From Nanobdellota archaeon (GTDB taxonomy: Archaea; Nanobdellota; Nanobdellia; Pacearchaeales; GW2011-AR1), in assembly GCA_038045705.1 (NCBI GenBank), contig JBBSXO010000002.1, positions 1 to 64,000 on the forward strand: a stretch of DNA of 64,000 nucleotides, read 5' to 3'. This document shows, piece by piece, positions 312 to 63,647 of this stretch. A program made the translations under genes and the position numbers. The first letter of the stretch is position 1. Each line of letters starts with the position of its first letter. Under the pieces are notes generated by a model. The model was not told where the DNA came from and made no database searches. It was given only the letters and a program-made list of their open reading frames with translations.

Positions 312-1082
312 CTAATTAGGAGTTTTCCTATTAAACAACCATATTGCTGTTGGTATTGAAACAATTAGTATTCCAATGCACCAGATAAATGCCAAAACTC
401 CAGCATCACCTATTGGAGTTCCAACCATCCAAGCACGCATAGCCTCAATTACTTTTGTAAAAGGTTGGTTTTCTGCAAACCATCTAACAACTCCAGGCAT
501 TCCTTCAGTAGGAACAAAAGCACTGCTTGCAAAAGTAAGAGGCATGATTATTACAAATGTCATCCATTGAATAGCCTCAAAGCTCTTAGCCAATAATCCA
601 AGAATAGCAGATAACCATGAAATAGCAAATGTGAATAATAACAATAATCCTATTATCATCATCCATTCGTTAAATCCCGCTGTAGGTCTAAATCCAACGA
701 GAAATGCAACTAAAACCATTATTACACCAGATATAACATTTCTAACAAGATCAGCTATAGTATGTGCAACTAATAATCCTGGAGAAAACATTGGTAGAGA
801 TCTGAATCTGTCAATAACTCCTCTTTTCATATCAAGCACTAAATTAATTGCAGTCGTACTTGCTCCAAATGCAAGAGTTTGTACTAAAATTCCAGCTACT
901 AAGAAATTAACATAAGTTGTTCCACCAGTGTCAATTGCTCCACCAAAAACATATCTAAACAATAACAAGAACATAATTGGCATTATTGCAACACCAAGTA
1001 GCTGATCCATATTTTTTACAATGTGTTTCAGACTACGATTAGTTAAAATCCAGCAGTCAAGTAAAATATCTTTTAGTTTCAT
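312..1082 (-). CDS. ABC-2 type transporter permease (DrrB-like)
   Basis: About six hydrophobic segments, GVIDRFRSLP and FASSAFVP motifs; overlaps the stop of the ATPase gene. Confidence 0.9.
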   Translation of the reverse strand: MKLKDILLDCWILTNRSLKHIVKNMDQLLGVAIMPIMFLLLFRYVFGGAIDTGGTTYVNFLVAGILVQTLAFGASTTAINLVLDMKRGVIDRFRSLPMFSPGLLVAHTIADLVRNVISGVIMVLVAFLVGFRPTAGFNEWMMIIGLLLLFTFAISWLSAILGLLAKSFEAIQWMTFVIIMPLTFASSAFVPTEGMPGVVRWFAENQPFTKVIEAMRAWMVGTPIGDAGVLAFIWCIGILIVSIPTAIWLFNRKTPN

Positions 1083-22899: not shown

Positions 22900-22977
22900 T
22901 TTAACCTATAGTCACCATAGTAGCTATAGTTTATAAATCTTTTCATTAGTTTTAAACTCTTGCGGTAAAACTTCAGT

Positions 22978-23047
22978 GTTTACATGTACCTAAGAAATGA
23001 AGATACTAAAAGTCGAGTAGTCAGCAATTCGATTTTCCCTGAGACCA
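22978..23047 (+). pseudogene. Degenerate copy of the intron-containing tRNA-Val(TAC)
   Basis: GTTTACAT..AAGAAATGAAGATACTAAAAGTCGAGTA..TTCGA..GAGACCA aligns with the anticodon, intron and 3' exon of 62389-62489. Confidence 0.7.
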
Positions 23048-23100
23048 TTAATTAAGAGATATTATAAACCTTAATTGCCTTAACAATTAAAGAAAGTAAA

Positions 23101-52020: not shown

Positions 52021-52860
52021 ATGAATAAAGAAAAAATACCTAGCAAGCCTGTTAAAAAGAATTATTCTAAATTCAGAACAGACAAAGATATTGCAATGGA
52101 CTTTGCGACAAAAGTTCAAAGAAAATTTGACCATTTAATTAAAGCAACAGTTCTATTTGGTTCACAAGTTTCAGGAGAAATAAAACCAGGTTCTGATATA
52201 GATATTGTAATAATTTTAGATGATGCATCAATAAATTGGGACATGGAATTAACTGCATGGTACAGAGAAGAGCTGTCAAAATTAATTACAGAACAAAACT
52301 ATTCTAGAGACTTACATGTAAACACAATTAGATTGACGACATGGTGGCGCGATTTATTGCACGGAGACCCAGTAGTACTAAACATAGTGAGGCAAGGTCA
52401 AGTCCTAATTGATATAGGAGGATTCTTCAATCCAATAAAATCATTAATGATTCAAGGTAAGATACACTCAACTCCTGAAGCAGTTTATGCCGCGTTACAA
52501 AGATCTCCTTATCATTTAACGAGAAGCAAAATGTCTATGCTAAACGCAGTAGAAGGAGTTTATTGGTGCATGGTAGAAGCAGCCCAAGCAGCTTTAATCA
52601 CTTTGGGAAAATTACCTCCTTCACCAGAACATATAACTAAAATGTTACATGAAAATTTTGTTGAAACAGGAGTCTTAAAGTCAGAATTTGTAAAATGGTA
52701 CCATAACATACACATTTTACACAAACAAATAGCTCACGGCGAAATAAAAATGGTAAAAGCACAAGAAATAGAGACATCCCAAATAAGAGCAGAAGAATTT
52801 ATGAAAAAAATGGTTGAAATTATAGACAAATTAATAGAAGCTCGTAAAGATCAAAAATAA
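52021..52860 (+). CDS. Pol-beta-family nucleotidyltransferase plus HEPN-like domain
   Basis: LFGSQ...SDIDIVIILDD; AAQAAL...HKQIAHG. Confidence 0.8.
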   Translation: MNKEKIPSKPVKKNYSKFRTDKDIAMDFATKVQRKFDHLIKATVLFGSQVSGEIKPGSDIDIVIILDDASINWDMELTAWYREELSKLITEQNYSRDLHVNTIRLTTWWRDLLHGDPVVLNIVRQGQVLIDIGGFFNPIKSLMIQGKIHSTPEAVYAALQRSPYHLTRSKMSMLNAVEGVYWCMVEAAQAALITLGKLPPSPEHITKMLHENFVETGVLKSEFVKWYHNIHILHKQIAHGEIKMVKAQEIETSQIRAEEFMKKMVEIIDKLIEARKDQK

Positions 52861-59021: not shown

Positions 59022-60842
59022 TCACAGTAAAATCTCAAAATCTCCAAGTTCTTTACTTAAGGCAGAAAGTACAGAAGAAGAAATTTTAACCTGAGTTTTA
59101 TCATTCTTATGAGTTACTAAGGCTTTCTCCAAAGCAATACTATCGCTCAACTTGAAAGAATTACCGACTATCTGCATCACACGACCAGATTCAATAAAGA
59201 AATTTCCAGAACCAGTCAAAACAAGTTCTCCTTTTTTATCTCCAAAGACAACTTCAACAACTTCTTTTTCCTCAAGAAGCAAATCAGCTCTCTGTGTATA
59301 ATCAAGCAATTCTTTAATCAATTCAATTGCATCTCTACGAAGAGCACCCATTTCCAAAGAAGTAATTTTTCCAGATTTAACCCTAGATTTCATAGCAACA
59401 ATTTCTTTCAAAGGCTTGGCAAATCTAGGTTGCAATTTACCCTTGGCAATCAGTTCATTATTTACATCCTTAACAAGAGCATCAACACTCTTATCACCAA
59501 ATATTTTCTTAAGTAAATCAAAAACCTCTTTATAGCTACGATCAGCATCATGAACAATCAATCTAGCTTCTAGTTTTTTCCTTATTTCTTGAAGTTTCTT
59601 ATCATATTTTTTAGACTCTTCAAGTAGCTCATCAACTTCTTTTCCAGGAATAGTTTTCAAAGTTCCATGTTCATAATCTTTATACAATTTAATAACTCTT
59701 TCAAGGAACTTCAATTCATTTACAGACATTATTTTTTCCGTATCGACTAAAACTTTCTTAACATCTGCAACCATATGTTTTGGAGCAGGAGGAGCATGAC
59801 CTGCAAGCATCACAAGAGCTTGCGTAGGAGTTACGACTCCCCAATAAATATCAACCATCGCATCAATTAATCTTCTAGTGACAAGAGACTCATTTTGCTC
59901 TCCATATTTCATAAATTTATCGACCGCCTCAGGAGATGGCTTAACTTTACCCATCTGGAGTAATAATTTCCAAGGCAAGAATGTACCCCTGTCATACATT
60001 GGTACACCATCACGAATAAAGGTAAACATTACAGGATTTGCATCTTTAACATTATCCCAGAAATCAGTCAACAAATAGACTTGAACATTTAAAACATTTT
60101 TAGTTCCAGATAAAGCAGTTGCTTCACGAATATAATCATGAATCATTCCCCTAAGTTTTTCAAGCAACTGTAACCGAGGCATTCTTTTTACATCAGTATC
60201 ATCAATAATAACAAAAGTATCTACATCACTTGTTTTATCAGCAGTACCTCTAACAAGACTCCCACCAACAACATAACTAGCAACATATTTTTCAAACTTA
60301 CGTAAAACCAAAGTCTTATGGATATTAGCAAGTCTCATTGAACCAAGCAAACCTTTATCATGCAATGGGAAACTGGAAGCAATAGCATCAACAAATTCAA
60401 ATTTGCTATCTAAACCATAATTCCACAAATCAACTTCAGTTTTTATGTGAACCCATAACTCTTGTTTTGATTCCTTAACCAACTTCAAAATCTCAGGTTT
60501 AATCTTCTTAGGAATATTCTTAAATTCATCTTCGGGAATAAGCATAACCATGTGAATAGGCTTTTTAGCAATTTCTTCAGGAAGCAAACCTTCATCTTCT
60601 TCAAACAACTTGAAAGCAGGCGCAGGCAAGATACTCAAAAAAGTAGTAAATGGAAACTTCTTAACTAATTTTTTCTTAAAATCCTCAAAACTTTCCTTGA
60701 GTTTCTCATTCTTAGCTAAATTCTCATCAGAAATTTGAGGCATAGAACCAGGAATATTCCCAGGTGGAACATAAGTATTAGTAGAAGACATAGCATCACT
60801 CAGGCCATGAGATTTCTTTTCCTGCATATCAACAAAAAGCAT
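59022..60842 (-). CDS. Nucleotidyltransferase (degenerate plus intact NTase) with HEPN-like domain
   Basis: VGGSLVRG...SDVDTFVIIDD; paralogous to 52021-52860. Confidence 0.8.
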   Translation of the reverse strand: MLFVDMQEKKSHGLSDAMSSTNTYVPPGNIPGSMPQISDENLAKNEKLKESFEDFKKKLVKKFPFTTFLSILPAPAFKLFEEDEGLLPEEIAKKPIHMVMLIPEDEFKNIPKKIKPEILKLVKESKQELWVHIKTEVDLWNYGLDSKFEFVDAIASSFPLHDKGLLGSMRLANIHKTLVLRKFEKYVASYVVGGSLVRGTADKTSDVDTFVIIDDTDVKRMPRLQLLEKLRGMIHDYIREATALSGTKNVLNVQVYLLTDFWDNVKDANPVMFTFIRDGVPMYDRGTFLPWKLLLQMGKVKPSPEAVDKFMKYGEQNESLVTRRLIDAMVDIYWGVVTPTQALVMLAGHAPPAPKHMVADVKKVLVDTEKIMSVNELKFLERVIKLYKDYEHGTLKTIPGKEVDELLEESKKYDKKLQEIRKKLEARLIVHDADRSYKEVFDLLKKIFGDKSVDALVKDVNNELIAKGKLQPRFAKPLKEIVAMKSRVKSGKITSLEMGALRRDAIELIKELLDYTQRADLLLEEKEVVEVVFGDKKGELVLTGSGNFFIESGRVMQIVGNSFKLSDSIALEKALVTHKNDKTQVKISSSVLSALSKELGDFEILL

Positions 60843-61871: not shown

Positions 61872-62003
61872 AGAAATAGACTCTAATTATGTTTGTGAAG
61901 CTCGTGGTTATCAATCACTAAATTCTTCTATTGCTTTTATACTATCCAAAATTACTTGGTGTAAATAATATTGTCTTAAAGGTTAAATTCTTTGTTATAT
62001 GAA

Positions 62004-62270
62004 TTACATTGCTCTCAATTTATCTTTGTATTCATGAAAAGAAATTTCAGCTGGTCTTATATCTAGTACTTCTTTAAGTCTTGAAGCAATACACCCAAGC
62101 TGAGAACCTGCTTCAAAAGGACCCTCTACAAGCCCTAATCTAACAGCTTCTTTTAAATCTTGAAAACTCTTTCCTTCTTTGTAACCTGCAACCTTCTCTA
62201 GACTGTTTGCATCTATTCCTTCAAAAAAAATCCTCTCGACAAGAGCAACGTAATATCGATGATTCTCCAT
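62004..62270 (-). CDS. Hypothetical protein
   Basis: 88-aa ORF. Confidence 0.5.
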   Translation of the reverse strand: MENHRYYVALVERIFFEGIDANSLEKVAGYKEGKSFQDLKEAVRLGLVEGPFEAGSQLGCIASRLKEVLDIRPAEISFHEYKDKLRAM

Positions 62271-62331
62271 TGATGTTTATTTAATTAATATGTTTTTAAT
62301 AATTTGTGTAATCTGACTGTATATTACTATA

Positions 62332-62370
62332 TGGCCCGTGGAAGAATCGGACTTCCGCCTTCTCGGTGTA
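62332..62370 (-). pseudogene. Orphan tRNA 3' half (Val-TAC-like)
   Basis: TAC-AC-CGAGA-AGGC-GGAAG-TCCGATT-CTTCC-ACGGGCC-A; perfect T stem; no matching 5' half in the window. Confidence 0.7.
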
Positions 62371-62388
62371 TAAATGCTCTTCTTATAA

Positions 62389-62489
62389 TGGCCCCACGCA
62401 GACTCGAACTGCGAATTACTCGGCTTTTAGTGTCTTCATTTCTTCCAACAGATGTAAACGAGTCGTTTGAACCCTTAGACTATGGGGCC
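62389..62489 (-). tRNA. tRNA-Val(TAC) with 29-nt intron at 37/38 (62424-62452)
   Basis: GGCCCCA/TGGGGCC acceptor, ACTCG/CGAGT anticodon stem, BHB core TTTA/TAAA, T arm CGCAG-TTCGAGT-CTGCG; weak D stem. Confidence 0.85.
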
Positions 62490-62493
62490 ATAC

Positions 62494-63441
62494 TTACGAT
62501 TTTATTTTACTTATTATAAACGTTTCTACCTGTTCTTTTTTTGGTACTTTTCCAGTTCTTAGAAACTCTTTATATTTGTAATTATTCTTAAAATTTGAGA
62601 ATCCTATTTTATCATAAAAATCTTTTACTTTCTCTTTTGTATAAATCATAATTCCTTTGTTGTATACTCCATGCTTTATTTCTAACATCTTTAACCCTTG
62701 ACTTACAGAATCTATTAAAGACTTTATTGTAATGGATAAATGAATCATTATTTTTGAATTTGGGTGTGAAGATAAACTTCCATCTGTATCCATTAATCCC
62801 CTTATACAAGACGCCACGGCTTCTTTATTAGCCATAATATAACCAGGAATTACTGGATTTGAGCCATATTTTACTCCTATTGGAAATCCGCATTTGTTTA
62901 GATATTCTGCTACTTTCTTACTATAAATTAAGCACCTTATCACCCTTTCTCTTTTATTAGTATAAATTTTTGGATAAAATCCAAAGAGATTATTAATTAG
63001 ATTATTCAAAAAATTGTTATAATAAAAATAGTCCACTATTTTATCTCCTGTAATAGATGTAGCTTTTTTATCTGAAAATATGCACCCATCTCCTAATAAT
63101 ACTCCATACAATTCTGCAAAATGAGGATTTTCTTTATCTGGAAAAGTTACTTCTTTTATTTGTAACTTCTGACCCCAGAAAGGTTCAGTTCTTTTAATAT
63201 CTAATTTAGTAATATCAACATCTGCTAATTTTATTAATTTATTAAACTTTGATGATGCAATTGTTCTATTAGGTATTAACCAATCATGAATTACTGCTTG
63301 CAGGTTAATTTCTAGTTTAGAGGCTAGTTGCTTCCAAGTTAGATTATTCTTTATCTTAGCTGAATTAAGAATTTCTTTTAAAGATCTCTTATCTAATAGT
63401 ATTCTTTCTTCTATAAACCTACCGTCAGTTGTTCTTTTCAT
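62494..63441 (-). CDS. Free-standing LAGLIDADG endonuclease-like protein with N-terminal HTH
   Basis: Two motifs AELYGVLLGDG and IRGLMDTDG; N-terminal LTWKQLASKL; no intein splice residues. Confidence 0.85.
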   Translation of the reverse strand: MKRTTDGRFIEERILLDKRSLKEILNSAKIKNNLTWKQLASKLEINLQAVIHDWLIPNRTIASSKFNKLIKLADVDITKLDIKRTEPFWGQKLQIKEVTFPDKENPHFAELYGVLLGDGCIFSDKKATSITGDKIVDYFYYNNFLNNLINNLFGFYPKIYTNKRERVIRCLIYSKKVAEYLNKCGFPIGVKYGSNPVIPGYIMANKEAVASCIRGLMDTDGSLSSHPNSKIMIHLSITIKSLIDSVSQGLKMLEIKHGVYNKGIMIYTKEKVKDFYDKIGFSNFKNNYKYKEFLRTGKVPKKEQVETFIISKIKS

Positions 63442-63543
63442 TTCTTTTAATAATGCTCTTTTATTTATATTTATTCATACTACTAGACTAATATTATGAT
63501 TAGAATAAAGCTTTATAAAACCTTTCTGTCCACTAACAAATAA

Positions 63544-63647
63544 GCGCGGGTAGTATAGTGGTTAGTATACGACGTTGCCACTTTTTCCCTTTAGTAAGAA
63601 GAGAAAGCAAAGACGTTGTGGCCCGGGTTCAATTCCCGGCCCGCGCA
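63544..63647 (+). tRNA. tRNA-Gly(GCC) with 32-nt intron at 37/38 (63581-63612)
   Basis: GCGCGGG/CCCGCGC acceptor, CGACG/CGTTG stem, BHB core TTGC/GCAA. Confidence 0.93.

Follow-up and report, generated by a model that had tools for sequence, protein, structure and literature searches.

In fungal mitochondria, an endonuclease open reading frame (ORF) can arrive together with a foreign gene segment and displace the native segment to a position beside it, and such mobile ORFs (mORFs) were originally reported from atp6 of Allomyces macrogynus (PMC3630166, citing Paquin et al. 1994). As outlined there, mORFs belong to organelle protein genes of which only the C-terminal segment is replaced, with the atp6 or nad3 segment and the mORF in phase (PMC3630166). 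A tRNA gene with a large insertion is described for Caldiarchaeum subterraneum, whose tRNA-Thr(GGU) locus consists of a 5' fragment, a 1,868-bp insertion and a complete tRNA directly preceded on the same strand by an 813-bp ORF of the insertion; position 27 is the junction, and an additional intron interrupts the restored tRNA at 24/25 (PMC3293823). In the same account, the ORF is a putative recombinase according to a machine-learning predictor, and integration by a pNOB8-type integrase is proposed (PMC3293823). SegB, a homing endonuclease of T-even phages, is free-standing and lies in a tRNA gene cluster (PMC13096335). Here, we analyze a 64,000-nt stretch of DNA from a Nanobdellota archaeon (JBBSXO010000002.1, 1 to 64,000; 'the window'), in which a 1.1-kb segment with a LAGLIDADG endonuclease gene and a complete tRNA-Val(TAC) gene is probably a mobile 'nuclease plus replacement tRNA' homing cassette inside a former resident tRNA-Val(TAC) gene. 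Two further types of system are relevant for comparison. In collaborative homing, a free-standing nuclease acts together with an intron that interrupts its target, and the allele that bears the nuclease is shielded by an intron close to the cleavage site. SegB, for its part, reportedly has a role in the inheritance of its tRNA region.

All coordinates are positions within the window, and features are on the minus strand unless marked (+). The window is contig C2 of its own assembly, here G000, which comprises 844 kb in 10 contigs with 32% G+C and 91.5% completeness; other G codes are related genomes and L codes are loci. Homologues of the window's proteins bear names such as Nanoarchaeota and Pacearchaeota archaeon. 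Relatives were sought by a DNA search in 60 genomes, and 10 tRNA-Gly/tRNA-Val loci from the same genus (congeners) were inspected.

tRNA-Val pieces on both sides of a LAGLIDADG gene

The layout given in the preliminary description proved exact. A gene for a helix-turn-helix (HTH)-LAGLIDADG endonuclease of 315 aa (62494..63441, stop TAA at 62496-62494) ends 4 nt before a complete tRNA-Val(TAC) (62389..62489), which scores 42.9 bits with the Rfam tRNA model (gathering score 29) and carries a 29-nt intron (62452-62424) between positions 37 and 38. Next comes a spacer of 18 nt (62371..62388), the native 3' flank of the intron-bearing tRNA-Val unit, and then an orphan tRNA 3' half of 39 nt (62332..62370) that runs from the anticodon to the discriminator. 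Upstream of the nuclease gene, positions 63474..63491 hold the decayed remainder of a tRNA 5' part (about positions 7-24 of the tRNA, the D arm). It is followed by a TATA-like box ATATAAAT (63463..63470), 22-29 nt upstream of the ATG, which may serve the nuclease gene; the homologous loci displayed likewise have a TATA-like element directly behind the tRNA 5' fragment. The cassette would thus extend from approximately 63473 to 62371 and hold, in 1.1 kb, the TATA box, the nuclease gene, the complete tRNA-Val(TAC) and a short 3' flank. A purine-rich stretch with a TATA box TTTTATAAA (63511..63526) upstream of the insertion is the putative promoter of the resident tRNA-Val, still in place, and the motif GAAAGGTTTTATAAAG is found about 30 nt upstream of tRNA-Val also in congeners G012, G006, G005, G010, G009 and G013. 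The locus is marked by a divergent neighbour outside the cassette, tRNA-Gly(GCC) with a 32-nt intron (63544..63647, +; Rfam tRNA 53.1 bits). ARAGORN without its intron option misses both intron-bearing tRNAs, whereas aragorn -i calls both.

We refer to the tRNA-Val(TAC) type of the cassette exons as the A allele and to that of the orphan and of congener G009 as the B allele. The first bases of the orphan are the anticodon TAC, its T arm consists of 5 bp and a loop of 7 nt, and ACGGGCC followed by the discriminator A forms its 3' end. Taken with the next base, it agrees at 40/40 bases with the 3' half of the tRNA-Val(TAC) in G009, a gene that is intact and intronless, and is therefore not a chance resemblance; compared with the 3' exon of the cassette tRNA, 23/35 bases are alike. 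Its acceptor strand had been said to pair incompletely with the upstream 5' exon, and indeed 5/7 acceptor positions and 4/5 anticodon-stem positions would pair. The matching 5' half proposed at that time, beginning GGCCCGT and with the anticodon-stem strand TCTCG, is that of the intact B allele in G009. The G000 assembly has one further occurrence of GGCCCGT, in a non-tRNA context, and wobble-tolerant patterns for the 5' half gave 16 and 26 matches in it, none of them tRNA-like.

The decayed fragment upstream of the nuclease gene also points to a B-type resident. Positions 63491-63474 align with positions 7-24 of the G009 B allele with 15/17 matches and one indel (p=0.0065; local alignment, 2000 shuffles), whereas the match to the A allele of the cassette is not significant (p=0.12, same type of test). 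Against the D-arm motif described below, the fragment has 4/15 mismatches, and the best control window has 5. The parts absent from the B gene are hence its first six bases and a stretch from about position 25 to 33. The exons of the cassette tRNA-Val are identical to the intronless tRNA-Val of four nuclease-free congeners (G002, G012, G006 and G013). This tRNA is the sole tRNA-Val(TAC) that aragorn -i detects in the G000 assembly and, since it rides on the element, element and host appear to be locked together.

The arrangement of orphan, tRNA and nuclease is not an assembly artefact, given that independent contigs reproduce it: a 2,626-nt contig of run X3, from another sample, spans 61900-63580 with 0 differences, and contigs from runs X4 and X7 connect orphan, spacer and tRNA-Val. 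A 416-nt contig of run X7 terminates exactly at 62370, the first base of the orphan, which may reflect an assembly-graph branch from an intact B-type allele in that sample.

In 10/10 congener loci, tRNA-Gly(GCC) and tRNA-Val(TAC) are divergent direct neighbours, counting L008, where aragorn labels the partner tRNA-Phe. The two are 60-123 nt apart in eight loci and 351 and 537 nt apart in the other two, compared with 1,053 nt in G000. None of the 10 loci has a LAGLIDADG gene between them or an orphan beside the tRNA. Relatives without the nuclease therefore differ in arrangement, as the preliminary description would have it, and the nuclease is present or absent at a fixed site among relatives, as is typical of LAGLIDADG homing endonucleases. 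The genus carries at least two quite different tRNA-Val(TAC) alleles. Downstream of both the G009 tRNA-Val and the G000 orphan lie genes for a YdjM-like protein (83% amino-acid identity) and a 606-aa protein (87%), and because of this synteny the orphan marks the ancestral position of the resident tRNA-Val. A contig from a co-occurring relative joins 63500 to 62489 through 17 other bases, with homology stopping at 63500; this nuclease-free contig belongs to a G012-like relative (7 differences in 70 bases) from the same samples.

The same loci vary in other ways. The 37/38 intron of tRNA-Gly(GCC) (window 63544-63647 and L002-L012) is missing in four loci and otherwise measures 20, 21, 27, 32, 34, 44 or 56 nt; these lengths are aragorn calls, and one of the loci scored as 'none' spans 93 nt and may hold an uncalled intron. 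A conserved element of ~45 nt (core ...CTCCGAG...GTTGAGGAG...CAAGAGAG...) flanks tRNA-Val in four congeners in either orientation, downstream of the tRNA in L009 and L007 and upstream, as the reverse complement, in L002 and L004.

The 315-aa protein matches Pfam LAGLIDADG_3 (PF14528) with an E-value of 1.7e-9 and 38.2 bits (cut-off 22.5), and no other Pfam family was found in it. Its two LAGLIDADG motifs, LGDG (Asp118) and DTDG (Asp220), are invariant in 23/23 family members (alignment A1) and in 15/15 sequences of the Val-type alignment. The AlphaFold2 model (mean predicted local distance difference test score, pLDDT, 93.7) has the alpha-beta-beta-alpha-beta-beta-alpha double-domain arrangement, and in Foldseek its best matches, with probability 1.00, are the archaeal intein and intron homing endonucleases TliVMA, PI-PfuI, I-Tsp061I and I-DmoI. 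The LAGLIDADG-fold transcription factor WhiA is also among the matches. The protein is thus predicted to have a homing-endonuclease fold. A helical, HTH-like domain, labelled Xre-type in some databases, makes up the N-terminal ~100 aa. Similarity at the sequence level is more distant: the closest PDB entry is 1dq3, with a marginal E-value of 0.0018, a scan against NCBIfam gave only weak matches to intein-containing proteins, far below the cut-offs, and the nearest homologue in a collection of 5.8 billion proteins is 58% identical.

Homologous loci in archaea and bacteria

A tblastn search with the nuclease protein yielded matches in 160/401 genomes of the order. Full-length orthologues (45-58% identity) come from 7 other genomes, no two of them in the same genus, and the remaining matches are ~25-40% identical; none of the 10 other congeners covered by this search has a close Val-type orthologue. 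Several of the matches contain in-frame stops, as would be expected for selfish nuclease genes in decay. Among 30 loci assessed, aragorn places a same-strand tRNA starting at or inside the end of the ORF in 26, to which Rfam adds one (L031) and inspection by eye another (L041), and only L016 and L021 have no downstream tRNA. A second sample, comprising one genome per species from all prokaryotes, gave 366 confirmed stretches, and in 59 of the best 80 a tRNA again starts at or inside the end of the ORF. Within these 80, the linkage is seen in 36/51 matches with the N-terminal domain and in 23/29 that consist of the core only.

The linkage is specific as to the tRNA. Close orthologues precede tRNA-Val(TAC), and distant homologues precede tRNA-Glu(CTC), tRNA-Gln, tRNA-Gly(CCC) and others; in many of the latter the stop codon TAG lies in the D loop of the tRNA, so that the acceptor strand encodes the last residues of the protein. 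Support for the Val(TAC) clade is 100/100 in a tree built from 23 member proteins. Mapping tRNA identity on this tree requires 7 changes, compared with a mean of 13.5 for shuffled labels, and 0/200 shuffles gave a number as low. The association with Val(TAC) extends to homologues of ~30% identity. On the sequences compared, nuclease clades track tRNA identity, and the preliminary description's view of the nuclease and its tRNA as one unit stands up across the family.

Many homologous loci also retain pieces of a former tRNA gene. Aligning the 5' part of each locus's own tRNA to the upstream region gave p<=0.005 in only 5/28 loci, and because alignments to AT-rich background dominated, this approach was replaced by a fixed 15-mer motif of the D arm (<=4 mismatches), which was chosen after the loci had been inspected and was tested against control windows. 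In 18/27 loci and in 0/133 controls, the motif is found immediately in front of a TATA-like box and stops 33-55 nt short of the ATG; in a wider set the numbers are 16/47 loci (4 loci skipped) and 1/233 control windows, and the distances over both sets are 31-55 nt. In G163, the resident tRNA-Val is split around the cassette: upstream of it stand 26 nt of the 5' part, with GGCCCGT at their start, and a 3' half that closes with ACGGGCCA follows 16 nt after the cassette tRNA. In G209, a gap of 21 nt separates the cassette tRNA from an orphan 3' half, which is mutated. The spacers in front of the orphan of G209 and of that at the end of C2 are short (10-21 nt), and some have (T)TATAA as their first bases. 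Upstream fragments end near tRNA position 25 and orphans start at 31-34, from which it follows that the missing part is the 5' strand of the anticodon stem. The claim of the preliminary description that the cassette invaded tRNA-Val at the anticodon hence needs amending as to the junction, which is not cleanly at the anticodon. A similar picture emerges for tRNA-Glu(CTC), whose site is filled in G006 and empty in G000: the upstream fragment in G006 equals the first 19 bases (19/19) of the uninterrupted gene of G000, and the G006 cassette tRNA differs from this G000 gene by compensatory changes in the D stem and anticodon stem.

Further tRNA-Val relics are present in G000 and its relatives. A decayed second copy of the intron-bearing tRNA-Val unit lies in an intergenic region of the window (22925..23075, +; 76% DNA match, alignment A2) and holds a 5' part, the anticodon loop, a homologous intron, a 3' exon and a 3' flank similar to the 18-nt spacer. 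An orphan intronless A-type 3' half with three changes at the acceptor end is found at 89499-89540 of C2 (L044), next to an MNT/HEPN-like pair and a SNF2-type helicase gene. G012 has the same locus at ~12.4 kb of its contig C5 (L127), beside the same nucleotidyltransferase gene (93% over 143 nt), and this relic must therefore predate the split of G000 and G012 or have been transferred. On G001:C13 (L004), the order is tRNA-Gly, a tRNA-Val with a different 33-nt intron, a toxin-antitoxin-like nucleotidyltransferase/HEPN-like (MNT/HEPN-like) pair of 172 and 110 aa, and an old tRNA-Val pseudogene that lacks the first ~6 bases and has the intron of G000. On the other side of this tRNA-Gly is a 404-aa ORF that is tyrosine-recombinase-like, judged from sequence alone.

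In bacteria, core-only homologues from the candidate phyla radiation (CPR; Patescibacteria-type), Omnitrophota and Margulisiibacteriota adjoin a downstream tRNA, nearly always tRNA-Ser, with a gap of 3-20 nt or an overlap (L091, L097-L100, L103, L106, L107, L110, L114, L116 and L121-L125). The tRNA linkage may thus extend to bacteria. Near L016, the sole Val-type nuclease gene without a downstream tRNA, Rfam reports an RT-16 RNA (68.2 bits, gathering score 50) at 502-628 (-) of the G239 locus, ~0.9 kb from the nuclease gene. Some candidates were discarded: the tRNA-Cys with a 1,291-nt intron that aragorn places on contig C3 is spurious and overlies an ftsZ-like gene, and additional matches in G004:C120 and G031:C30 are ordinary tRNA-Val(GAC) genes.

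Proposed homing route, self-protection and rival explanations

The following course of events is an inference as regards the cutting of tRNA-Val DNA and its exact site, the route of repair, co-transcription and the way in which immunity arises. The nuclease would recognise an uninterrupted tRNA-Val gene and cut it between the D arm and the anticodon loop, at about positions 25-32. The break would be repaired from a cassette-bearing copy, with homology in the promoter and 5' fragment used on one side; the 3' side would rely on homology within the tRNA or, for alleles too divergent for this, such as those here, on a short junction at the anticodon loop. This would destroy the resident gene, leaving a 5' fragment upstream and, where the alleles are too divergent (A and B here, G163 and G209), the resident 3' half downstream. 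The cassette tRNA would be co-transcribed with the nuclease mRNA, released by normal tRNA processing and take over decoding, and the host could then not lose the cassette without losing its only tRNA-Val(UAC). The cassette tRNA itself may escape cutting through sequence differences near the junction, a nearby intron, or both.

The introns of the cassette tRNAs bear on the last step. In the window, the splice sites lie in two 3-nt bulges around a 4-bp helix, in which positions 32-35 pair with UAAA near the 3' end of the intron, with one C-C mismatch beside the 5' bulge (folded by hand); this resembles a bulge-helix-bulge motif. Minimum-free-energy folds were uninformative (pre-tRNA z -1.9, spacer and orphan z +0.3) and did not recover the cloverleaf. 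The 29-nt intron holds no ORF. Introns are present in 13/19 Val-type cassette tRNAs, at 37/38 in some and in the D loop close to the junction (3-4 nt) in others, and absent in 6/19; in nuclease-free congeners, 2/10 loci have one. G000 and G042 carry the intron at 37/38, whereas G393 and several deeper-branching members share a homologous D-loop intron. The D-loop introns lie 3-4 nt before the endpoint of the upstream fragments and were read by eye, given that aragorn mislabels them. It is plausible that an intron breaks the recognition site and shields the cassette allele, which fits these counts, although it would not be a general solution. A protective role of tRNA introns against mobile elements is an old proposal attributed to Randau and Söll (PMC4390854), and the cassette bears on it.

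Several observations weigh against reading the segment as a homing cassette. The nuclease's activity and its target are predicted ones. No filled/empty polymorphism within one species was seen in the assembled contigs, to which the search was confined, and stretches without contig cover in runs X6 and X7 are uninformative. The related genomes are not independent, so the counts above overstate the number of independent events. The cassette exons are an allele common in the genus, yet the nearest nuclease homologue is only 58% identical, which means that the cassette donor is unsampled and that the history must include unsequenced nuclease-bearing congeners. The two relics differ in preservation, with the 5' relic decayed and its acceptor strand gone and the 3' orphan pristine (0 changes in 39 nt). 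This suggests that co-conversion brought in the upstream fragment, an older one, from the donor and that the orphan alone is the fresh relic of the recipient, which is an extra assumption on our part. As the restored tRNA again contains the whole tRNA sequence, self-cleavage must be avoided, and for the 6/19 intronless cassette tRNAs no immunity determinant was found. No nuclease remnant was seen beside the 22925-23075 copy or the decayed copy G010:C17, the L044 orphan is an old A-type relic common with G012, and in G001 a toxin-antitoxin-like pair rather than a nuclease separates the new from the old tRNA-Val. Turnover of tRNA-Val at such loci hence does not always proceed via the nuclease.

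Some of the same observations would suit an allele replacement without nuclease drive, in which a foreign tRNA-Val arrived by lateral transfer and illegitimate or short-homology recombination at a tRNA locus prone to recombination, with the orphan left behind. The LAGLIDADG gene would then be no more than a passenger, or would encode a domesticated protein that binds DNA, comparable to WhiA, in the well-expressed and harmless spot of a tRNA leader. The nuclease-free relics at 22925-23075 and G010:C17 and the new tRNA-Val, MNT/HEPN-like pair and old pseudogene of G001 without LAGLIDADG gene can be read in this way, as can the Foldseek match to WhiA and the scatter of A and B among equally distant congeners (G013, with A, and G009, with B, are both 87% identical in the flanking 606-aa protein). 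We nevertheless consider this explanation unlikely. Both catalytic Asp residues are invariant in 23/23 sequences, unlike in WhiA, which is not known to retain them, and a preference for a harmless spot is too weak to account for a linkage so tight that at many loci the ORF ends within the D loop of the tRNA. Nor would it account for nuclease clades that are tRNA-specific, for an upstream fragment that always ends at the same tRNA position beside the TATA box of the ORF, or for copies with in-frame stops, as in the decay of selfish nucleases.

An integrase could also have left tRNA pieces if a plasmid or virus had integrated at a tRNA-Val attachment site, duplicated part of the tRNA and later been mostly deleted. 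Archaeal integrative elements are described as using tRNA genes and leaving partial tRNA repeats (PMC3293823), the tyrosine-recombinase-like 404-aa ORF lies beside tRNA-Gly in G001, and the A, B and other alleles share a 15-nt anticodon stem-loop core as a potential crossover site. The signs of SSV- or pNOB8-type integration, namely an integrase gene, near-identical border repeats and a hybrid tRNA, are however all lacking here: the insert encodes the LAGLIDADG protein only, orphan and intact 3' exon agree at 23/35 bases and thus form no attachment-type direct repeat, and both exons of the intact tRNA are A-type. The orphan also lies 18 nt behind the intact tRNA, which is not the length of an element, and the identical architecture recurs with LAGLIDADG genes at dozens of loci, leaving an integrase origin very improbable. 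The alternative of the preliminary description, in which the orphan would belong to a split, trans-spliced tRNA of the Nanoarchaeum equitans type, draws on the good form of this 3' half, with T arm and acceptor strand intact and no decay relative to a functional gene. We dropped it as scarcely credible, given that the assembly (91.5% complete) offers no tRNA-like 5' half, that G009 has this sequence within a contiguous gene and that a complete, contiguous tRNA-Val(TAC) stands 18 nt upstream; moreover, no complementary leader precedes the orphan, and the homologous orphans in G209 and at the end of C2 are mutated.

The homing-cassette reading can be widened. Cassettes of this type are apparently widespread in DPANN archaea and possibly beyond, as far as sequence comparison can tell. 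A doubtful but possible extension is that HTH-LAGLIDADG/tRNA cassettes are widespread, still active natural 'home-and-rescue' gene drives of DPANN archaea; these would have relatives next to tRNA-Ser genes in CPR and other bacteria, cut uninterrupted tRNA genes between D arm and anticodon loop, and carry a rescue tRNA shielded by compensatory stem changes or by a bulge-helix-bulge intron adjoining the cut site. If this were true, homing endonucleases would be a direct cause of archaeal tRNA-gene fragments, of rapid turnover of tRNA alleles, and of tRNA introns being gained and kept at 37/38 and in the D loop.

Relation to described systems and neighbouring features

The closest parallel is with the fungal mORFs. 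Both have an ORF, an inserted gene copy and a displaced native part, here an A-type tRNA flanked by B-type pieces. In mORFs, the native part is (nearly) identical to the gene of a sister species and the inserted copy is divergent (PMC3630166); likewise, the orphan matches G009 at 40/40 bases and the cassette exon at 23/35, so the native part is nearer to the sister gene than to the inserted copy. In contrast to mORFs, the cassette concerns a chromosomal archaeal tRNA gene and an HTH-LAGLIDADG protein with its own putative promoter, it supplies a whole tRNA (or its 5' part), and displaced pieces lie on both sides. The Caldiarchaeum insertion shares the architecture, a nearly equal junction (27 there, inferred as ~25-32 here) and an intron beside the junction, whereas that account (PMC3293823) reports no LAGLIDADG identity, family-wide pattern or 3' orphan.

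SegB and collaborative homing are looser parallels. Like the nuclease gene of the window, that of SegB lies between genes and is linked to tRNAs, with co-conversion of flanking markers; it differs as a GIY-YIG phage enzyme that spreads in co-infection and is not known to carry a replacement gene or to leave a split resident tRNA. I-DmoI, I-Tsp061I and PI-PfuI, which are among the best structural matches to the predicted model, share its fold and catalytic motifs, but their genes lie within a spliced rRNA intron or an intein and the host gene is restored at the RNA or protein level. In the cassette, the ORF is not inside an intron of its target but ends 4 nt before the tRNA, host function would be restored by a second gene copy, and an N-terminal HTH-like domain is added. 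Our literature search, with supplements and subscription journals outside its scope, found no description of LAGLIDADG genes embedded at archaeal/DPANN or CPR tRNA genes, and the word tRNA is absent from PMC11270868, which treats rRNA insertions of CPR bacteria.

If the proposed reading is true, a spare copy of the broken gene would be a third way for a homing endonuclease gene to spare its host, besides a self-splicing intron or an intein, and one that has so far been documented mainly for fungal mitochondrial protein genes. It would provide a concrete source for orphan tRNA halves and 5' fragments beside complete genes, as in the Caldiarchaeum case, for unrelated alleles of the same tRNA in sister species and for introns at non-canonical positions. 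The enzymes are compact nucleases, each apparently specialised for one tRNA gene, and hence candidates for biochemical study.

A 9-nt direct repeat AAGAGCATT (63460-63452 and 62381-62373) was considered as an element boundary and rejected, as it is 1 of 10 comparable repeat families in 1.26 kb. The 606-aa protein downstream of the orphan (59022-60842, -) has a nucleotidyltransferase domain and is conserved, with 70-88% identity, in 17/17 genomes of the genus. A paralogue of ~28% identity is encoded at 52090-52845 (+) and lies nearby in most genomes of the genus.

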